Sequence record: PP301343.1
Direction: 5' to 3' (one strand)
Source of the DNA: Escherichia phage UE-M6
DNA: 64,000 bases
Every line of letters starts with the position of its first letter. Positions within the stretch are counted from its first letter, which is position 1. Shown here piece by piece: positions 60,669-60,688 of the stretch. The notes beneath the pieces are model-generated. The model had not been told where the DNA came from. It ran no database searches and was given only the letters and a program-made list of their open reading frames with translations. A program made the position numbers and the translations under genes.

Positions 60669-60688
60669 CATAAGACGCGGAGCGTCTT
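60669..60688 (-). promoter_or_regulatory. Putative N4-type vRNAP hairpin promoter
   Basis: Template-strand hairpin aagacgc-GGA-gcgtctt (7-bp stem) with CATCCATAAG flank; loop-centre G at 60680; predicted +1 about 60669. Confidence 0.5.

Follow-up and report, generated by a model that had tools for sequence, protein, structure and literature searches.

The promoters of the virion-packaged RNA polymerase (vRNAP) of phage N4 are conserved from -17 to +1 and consist of a GC-rich heptamer centred at -11 with inverted repeats around it (PMC4496689). Specific recognition involves -11A/G, -10G, -8G and +1C, with D901 of the N4 polymerase contacting -9C/-10G, R904 contacting -8G and W129 contacting the base at -11, while the promoter spacer is not contacted and acts as a ruler (PMC4496689). 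Promoters of this type have a stem of 5-7 bp and a loop of 3 nt on the template strand as well as a short A-rich spacer, and they lie in the leftmost, first-injected part of the genome. Extrusion of the hairpin via gyrase supercoiling and host single-stranded-DNA-binding protein (SSB) is known for N4 only. The N4 reference genome contains exactly three such hairpins, all of them on the template strand:

90-102, N4 template strand: P1 hairpin with a GAA loop, before gp1
557-573, N4 template strand: P2 hairpin AAGAAGC-GGA-GCTTCTT, before gp2, with the start at 576
4546-4562, N4 template strand: P3 hairpin AAGCTGC-GGA-GCAGCTT, before gp15

The segment 557-573 contains CCAAAAGAAGCGGAGCTTC, the core of the P2 oligonucleotide in a 2026 cryo-EM initiation complex. 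Hairpin promoters have also been predicted in several N4-like phages, and the early hairpin promoters of Pseudomonas phage LUZ7 were mapped experimentally by ONT-cappable-seq (PMC9163698).

The window, i.e., the whole 64,000-nt stretch of DNA analyzed here, derives from a Gamaleyavirus (G7C-like, N4-like coliphage, Schitoviridae) and is reversed in orientation relative to the N4 reference. With Escherichia phage UE-S5b the region under study shares 99.6% identity, and with many G7C-like phages 92-96%. The genes of this part are all located on the - strand, so that the + strand is their template and a GGA loop on the + strand lies on the template side. The features of the early region are as follows:

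60672..60688, + strand (template strand): predicted P2-type promoter hairpin, from sequence anatomy and N4 geometry
60665..60671, + strand: CATCCAT, single-stranded template flank, which holds +1C (60669), +2C (60668) and part of the spacer
60669, - strand: predicted transcription start, derived from N4 geometry and the conserved CC at +1/+2
60176..60658, - strand: gp2 homologue, single-stranded-DNA-binding cofactor of the middle RNA polymerase, 68% identical to N4 gp2
61355..61369, + strand: P1-type hairpin ACATGC-GGA-GCATGT, predicted start 61351, upstream of the gp1 homologue
60989..61312, - strand: gp1 homologue, 66% identical to N4 gp1
56920..56934, + strand: P3-type hairpin AGCTGC-GGA-GCAGCT, predicted start 56916, upstream of the gp15 homologue
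56068..56886, - strand: gp15 homologue, middle RNA polymerase small subunit, 67% identical to N4 gp15

The 7-bp stem with a GGA loop that an earlier note on this DNA had placed at this locus was found to be correct in all its coordinates. The arms AAGACGC (60672-60678) and GCGTCTT (60682-60688) pair perfectly around the loop at 60679-60681. In N4 numbering, -12A corresponds to 60681, -11G to 60680, -10G to 60679, -9C to 60678 and -8G to 60677, and the core GCGGAGC (60677-60683) constitutes a GC-rich heptamer centred at -11 with a purine at the loop centre. The spacer A-T-A-A (-1 to -4, 60670-60673) sets the distance from -8G to the start, and the template +1C, C60669, is located 11 nt from the loop centre G60680 and 8 nt downstream of -8. 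All DNA determinants listed in PMC4496689 are present in this hairpin. The resemblance of the flank to that of N4 hairpin promoters, which had likewise been noticed before, is borne out by a direct comparison, as CATCCATAAG at 60665-60674 matches the N4 P2 flank CATCCAAAAG at nine of ten positions. RNA starting at 60669 would, by analogy with N4, begin with 5'-GGAUGAUUUAAAUG..., with two GTPs initiating. Folded as single-stranded DNA, a 46-nt segment with the hairpin is more stable than 198 of 200 shuffled sequences (z = -3.0). Since the three hairpins of the window precede the homologues of gp1, gp2 and gp15 (66-68% protein identity), the hairpin at 60672-60688 is, judged by position and sequence, the orthologue of the N4 early promoter P2.

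Conservation was examined in 35 IMG/VR loci, which were collected with the short gp2 protein as sole bait and show 42-98% identity. The GGA-loop hairpin is present in all 16 loci of 62-98% identity with the exception of L021, and also in L020 and L038, the two most distant among four further loci scored. From the hairpin centre to the downstream point where the gp2 match begins there are 106-121 nt; only in L008, which carries a 33-nt insertion, is this distance 151 nt. The stems of the relatives comprise AAGACGC, AGACGC, GACGC, AAGATGC, AAGAAGC, AGCTGC, GGCTGC, GCCGC, AGCGGC and ACCTGC. The inner five pairs are paired in all of the 19 distinct sequences, a percentage that is partly built in because the hairpins compared were picked by a hairpin search; both-side changes occur in six of the seven pairs, and the covariation score of the stem amounts to 0.573 vs. 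0.143 in shuffles. Evidence independent of this choice comes from the constant position of the hairpin, its unchanging loop and CC, and its repeated occurrence on a single strand. Within the hairpins of the distinct relatives, -9C is invariant and -8G is found in 17 of 19, these stem bases being those that the specificity loop contacts. The canonical hairpins of those loci (GCGRAGC core, +1C) all lie on the strand that serves the early genes as template, and none on the opposite one.

In several relatives a fourth canonical hairpin promoter is predicted between the P1 and P2 positions, beside inserted small genes:

L002 (SP5M), 5331-5345: fourth hairpin
L013 (KP8), centre 970: fourth hairpin
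L008, centre 1594: fourth hairpin
L010, centre 154: fourth hairpin
L012, centre 1618: fourth hairpin
L017, centre 1455: fourth hairpin

Stem sequences also swap positions, with AAGACGC standing before gp2 in the window and before ORF4 in Klebsiella phage KP8. Within the subfamily, cassettes of promoter plus gene seem to move as units, as far as the compared sequences indicate. The 33-nt insertion of L008 mentioned above (1940-1985, IMGVR_UViG_3300045988_012650) is an in-frame addition to the gp2 extension (see below) and represents two coding-strand GAA-loop hairpins, GTCGC-GAA-GCGAC and AACCATAC-GAA-GTATGGTT. The first of them has a GCGAAGC core, but an A instead of C at the would-be +1.

Next to the early hairpins and genes, the following features of the window are of relevance:

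61054..61454, no strand: direct terminal repeat of the virion DNA, present as a single collapsed copy in the window
60959..60982, - strand: terminator GGAGGCUC-UUCG-GAGUCUCC followed by GUUUUG, after the gp1 homologue
60693..60896, - strand: 67-aa ORF between the gp1 terminator and the P2-type hairpin
60147..60166, - strand: intrinsic terminator AGACUCCC-UUCG-GGGAGUCU followed by a U-run, 10 nt past the gp2 stop
14417..24787, + strand: vRNAP gene, mechanical ORF of 3456 aa

The terminal repeat was placed by means of the termini of the most similar records and of the 401-403 bp repeat annotated in phage Mimir124. The physical left end (in N4 orientation) would accordingly lie at about 61454, with ~61455 to 64000 of the window being the other genome end. 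The predicted start at 60669 is 786 nt away from the physical end that enters the cell first and points into the early genes. The repeat encloses the P1-type hairpin together with the gp1 homologue as far as codon 86; a second copy of P1 is therefore to be expected at the other end of the virion DNA, firing towards the terminus.

The P2-type promoter and the terminator at 60147..60166 would bound a transcription unit of ~0.5 kb, and the terminator at 60959..60982 sets the P1 unit apart from what lies upstream of the P2-type hairpin. Partial read-through past gp2 is likely, as about a dozen small ORFs follow downstream and the next hairpin promoter is located only at 56927. The 67-aa ORF has neither a PHROG match nor a hairpin promoter of its own, and its expression would need read-through of the P1 terminator. 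Megablast matches to most relatives cover 82-84% of a 1.3-kb query around this ORF, in two pieces.

The polymerase domain encoded by the vRNAP gene finds its match in the solved structures of N4 and shares 71% identity with N4 mini-vRNAP. It keeps W129, K268, K849, K850, D901 and R904 (mini-vRNAP numbering) as well as the catalytic D559 and D951, and K267 of the intercalating hairpin is replaced by N. On the sequence level, the window appears to encode both the promoter and its expected reader. The mechanical ORF of the vRNAP gene opens at TTG 14417; alignment with N4 gp50 suggests that the true start is likely to be ATG 14435, six codons further on.

Several other explanations for the hairpin have to be considered. 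It is scarcely credible that the palindrome arose by chance, or that it is a GCGNAGC mini-hairpin serving the DNA in a different way, e.g., in priming or as a replication signal. Other phages do have mini-hairpins of this kind where replication or priming takes place, and the bare heptamer GCGRAGC is found at chance frequency in the window (5 observed vs. 5.6 expected). However, three hairpins combine this core with a stem of 5 bp or more, compared to a mean of 0.094 in 1000 dinucleotide shuffles, none of which yielded three. The three are all on the + strand, directly before early genes and within 4.5 kb at one genome end. They share the GCGGAGC core, and in each of them the base at +1, at a distance of 11 nt from the loop centre, is a C. 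The strict strand bias as well as the positional conservation and compensatory changes described above argue against chance. The two remaining GCGRAGC heptamers, at 47541 (+) and 63546 (-), have stems of at most 3 bp and were rejected as chance occurrences. AAA-loop hairpins on the + strand at 62591-62607 and 57423-57435 were rejected as vRNAP promoters as well, since they do not have -10G; the former additionally carries A instead of C at +1. The pattern CATCC-N9-GGA taken alone is not significant in the window (4 matches vs. 1.2 expected, three of the matches being without a stem), and an Rfam scan of 56000-64000 at E <= 1 yielded zero matches. A sigma-70 scan found zero - strand sites in 60560-60900, and overall fewer sites than in shuffled sequences, which gives no indication of a host promoter for gp2.

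A function at the RNA level was considered for both strands. Read on the + strand, TAAGACGC-GGA-GCGTCTTG followed by GTTTTAA might be an intrinsic terminator, and a consensus terminator scan indeed reports a match at 60671-60689 (+) with 8 pairs and the tail GTTTTAACTG; a GGTTTT tail also recurs among several relatives. Nevertheless, this explanation is highly improbable. Between 56000 and 61400, every ORF with a match to phage genes, whatever its length, runs on the - strand, so that a + strand terminator would have no gene to serve. A rho-independent terminator is defined by a GC-rich hairpin with a T-run immediately behind it at the end of a gene on the same strand, and a + strand gene ending at this site is not found. 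In addition, the T-run is short and formed in part by the stop codon of the ORF upstream. N4, G7C and other relatives have retained the hairpin but not the T-run (CTCTTT, GTTGTC, GTTACC), and a terminator would have no need of an invariant GGA loop, -8G and a CC at a fixed distance of 11 nt. On the - strand, the hairpin could form a stem-loop in read-through transcripts and serve as 3' stabiliser, processing or pause site after the 67-aa ORF. It begins 5 nt past the stop codon of this ORF, and the - strand folds well too (-8.1 kcal/mol, z = -3.4), which counts for such a role. Still, it appears very unlikely, as the stem is not followed by a U-run on this strand (the sequence there being AUGGAUGAUUU) and as N4 and those relatives without the upstream 67-aa ORF keep the hairpin. 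Moreover, the strand carrying the conserved GGA loop is the template, which is what a DNA-hairpin promoter requires, and a role in RNA leaves +1C and +2C at their fixed distance unexplained.

Taking all this into account, we assign a probability of roughly 0.9 to the reading that the hairpin is the early promoter of the gp2 homologue, orthologous to N4 P2 and read by the phage's own virion-packaged vRNAP. The sequence anatomy, the synteny, the compensatory stem changes and the retained recognition residues of the polymerase were observed directly. Counting against this reading are the spacer ATAA in place of AAAA, although these bases are uncontacted in N4 (PMC4496689), the N at K267 of the polymerase, and the match of the same sequence to a simple terminator pattern on the + strand. 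Every available test at the sequence level agrees with the proposal, already made in the earlier note, of an N4-type hairpin promoter on the template strand, directed leftwards and being one of three.

As in N4, the left genome end would enter the cell along with vRNAP, and negative supercoiling by the host gyrase would extrude the inverted repeat as a cruciform. Host SSB would then melt the non-template hairpin, so that the mini-hairpin GC-GGA-GC of the template strand remains, which is expected to be unusually stable because of a sheared G:A pair. vRNAP might bind this hairpin with W129 reading the central loop purine -11G, its intercalating hairpin opening the 7-bp stem at the base and the 4-nt spacer setting template C60669 into the active site. 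Initiation would take place with two GTPs opposite C60669 and C60668, and the RNA starting with GG would run leftwards, as - strand, through gp2 to the strong terminator at 60166-60147. Both initiation at 60669 and the dependence on supercoiling and SSB are inferred from the analogy with N4.

The position of the predicted start also bears on the gene model of gp2. The long form of the protein (160 aa) starts at ATG 60658, whereas the internal start ATG 60559 with the ribosome binding site (RBS) GGAGAG would give rise to 127 aa. It had been stated correctly that the predicted start is located 110 nt upstream of ATG 60559 and 11 nt upstream of ATG 60658. The view that the start site favours the short gene model, however, is not supported, the comparison of relatives pointing in the opposite direction. 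An ATG or GTG is found 8-11 nt past the predicted start in 13 distinct relatives including N4, and from there the frame is free of stops into gp2, whereas the other two frames contain 23 and 31 stops. Extension lengths of 31, 32, 33 or 44 codons show that all three indels are in frame, and the untranslated stretch before the long start codon varies by single nucleotides among the relatives. The leader up to the internal ATG measures 102-110 nt in close relatives and 140 nt in L008 with its 33-nt insertion. In the N4 reference record gp2 is annotated in its long form as well (586..1071, beginning 10 nt past the P2 start at 576). Differences within the extension are distributed over codon positions 1/2/3 as 1009/569/879 and are thus fewest at the second position, which fits a hydrophobic peptide with I, L, V and F interchanging. 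From these sequence comparisons we conclude that the long gp2 ORF is maintained by selection.

There is also evidence for the short start. The segment TCTGGAGAGTACAAAATG, which includes the internal RBS and ATG, shows no variation at any position, the match to PHROG family 4099 sets in at residue 34 of the long protein, and more distant relatives do not have the extension. Both starts may be used. The 33-codon extension (60559-60658, - strand) opens hydrophobic, with a Kyte-Doolittle maximum of 2.17 over 15 residues. N4 gp2 was reportedly recovered with membranes, and a long anchored form next to a short soluble form of gp2 is conceivable.

The gp2 leader, read as - strand RNA, contains two stem-loops that are conserved in 10 distinct relatives. 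In the first (60669-60651), the 5'-terminal GGAUG pairs with CAUCC and the first AUG is placed in the loop; a compensatory change from G-C to U-A occurs in two sequences. The second (60621-60594) has the invariant loop ACCGAC and covarying stems (GGGTTT/AAACCC, GGGTG/CACCC, CTC/GAG, ACTT/AAGT). Taken together, 93.6% of all cells are paired, which is reached by none of 500 shuffles. The minimum free energy of the window leader RNA is by itself unremarkable (z = -1.07), and covariation is the sole support for the leader structures. A transcript from this promoter might be more than a plain messenger, combining a hydrophobic and possibly membrane-associated long gp2 from an almost leaderless start with a short soluble isoform and with leader stem-loops that set the isoform ratio or RNA stability. 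This idea builds on an open frame that is conserved, on indels that preserve it and on modest covariation; it is tentative and we regard it as rather unlikely. A feedback of gp2 on its own leader is conceivable by analogy, such feedback being known for other single-stranded-DNA-binding proteins such as T4 gp32. Many GenBank records (G7C, Mimir124, KP8 and others) give the gp2 homologue the label 'RNA polymerase RNAP1 subunit A' or 'integrase'. According to its sequence, it is a single-stranded-DNA-binding cofactor of the N4 gp2 type and no polymerase subunit.

For annotation, the hairpin is of value as it would fix the predicted start of the gp2 transcription unit in a G7C-like coliphage that is a therapeutic candidate. 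The early programme of N4 is intact in the window, where gp1, gp2 and the gene for the middle polymerase subunit are each preceded by one of the three hairpin promoters, and with regard to the mechanism the hairpin of the window adds nothing new. By-products of the analysis are the corrected argument on the gene model, with the long gp2 being evolutionarily maintained, and hairpin promoters that seem to travel with gene cassettes.

Of the described systems, N4 P2 shares with the hairpin of the window the locus directly upstream of gp2, the strand logic, the 7-bp stem, the GGA loop and the GCGGAGC core, as well as -11G, -10G, -9C, -8G, +1C and +2C, the flank CATCC-A-T/A-AAG and the distance to the gp2 start codons. 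The differences are small. Stem pair -7/-15 is C-G in the window and A-T in N4, which represents a compensated change, and -2 is T in the window and A in N4, resulting in the spacer ATAA instead of AAAA. The start is located 786 nt from the genome end in the window and 576 nt in N4, the longer distance being due to the 67-aa ORF between gp1 and the hairpin. In contrast to N4 P2, the element of the window is a predicted promoter.

The early promoters of Pseudomonas phage LUZ7 are likewise template-strand hairpins with a 3-nt loop, a starting G and a co-injected vRNAP (PMC9163698). They differ in having stems of at least 4 bp, a start 13-14 nt from the hairpin centre, and nine early start sites (PMC9163698). 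LUZ7 furthermore has no gp2 homologue and uses Drc instead. The GCGNAGC 'mini-hairpin' DNA described by Hirao and co-workers (PMC13037366) has the GCGGAGC core, two G-C pairs and the sheared G:A pair in common with the hairpin of the window. It is, however, a structural motif and no functional family, whereas in the window it is part of a longer stem and has promoter-specific flanks. The putative promoter 'P2' of Klebsiella phage KP8 (PMC6950046, Table 1; annotated as 'promoter' in MG922974) has the identical 22-mer AAGACGCTCCGCGTCTTATGGA. In KP8, this identical hairpin precedes ORF4, an extra gene, and the stem of KP8's own gp2 hairpin is GGCTGC; moreover, four hairpin promoters are predicted in KP8 compared to three in the window. 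As the identical 22-mer has already been published for KP8, the hairpin of the window is a known element, both in kind and in effect also in sequence.
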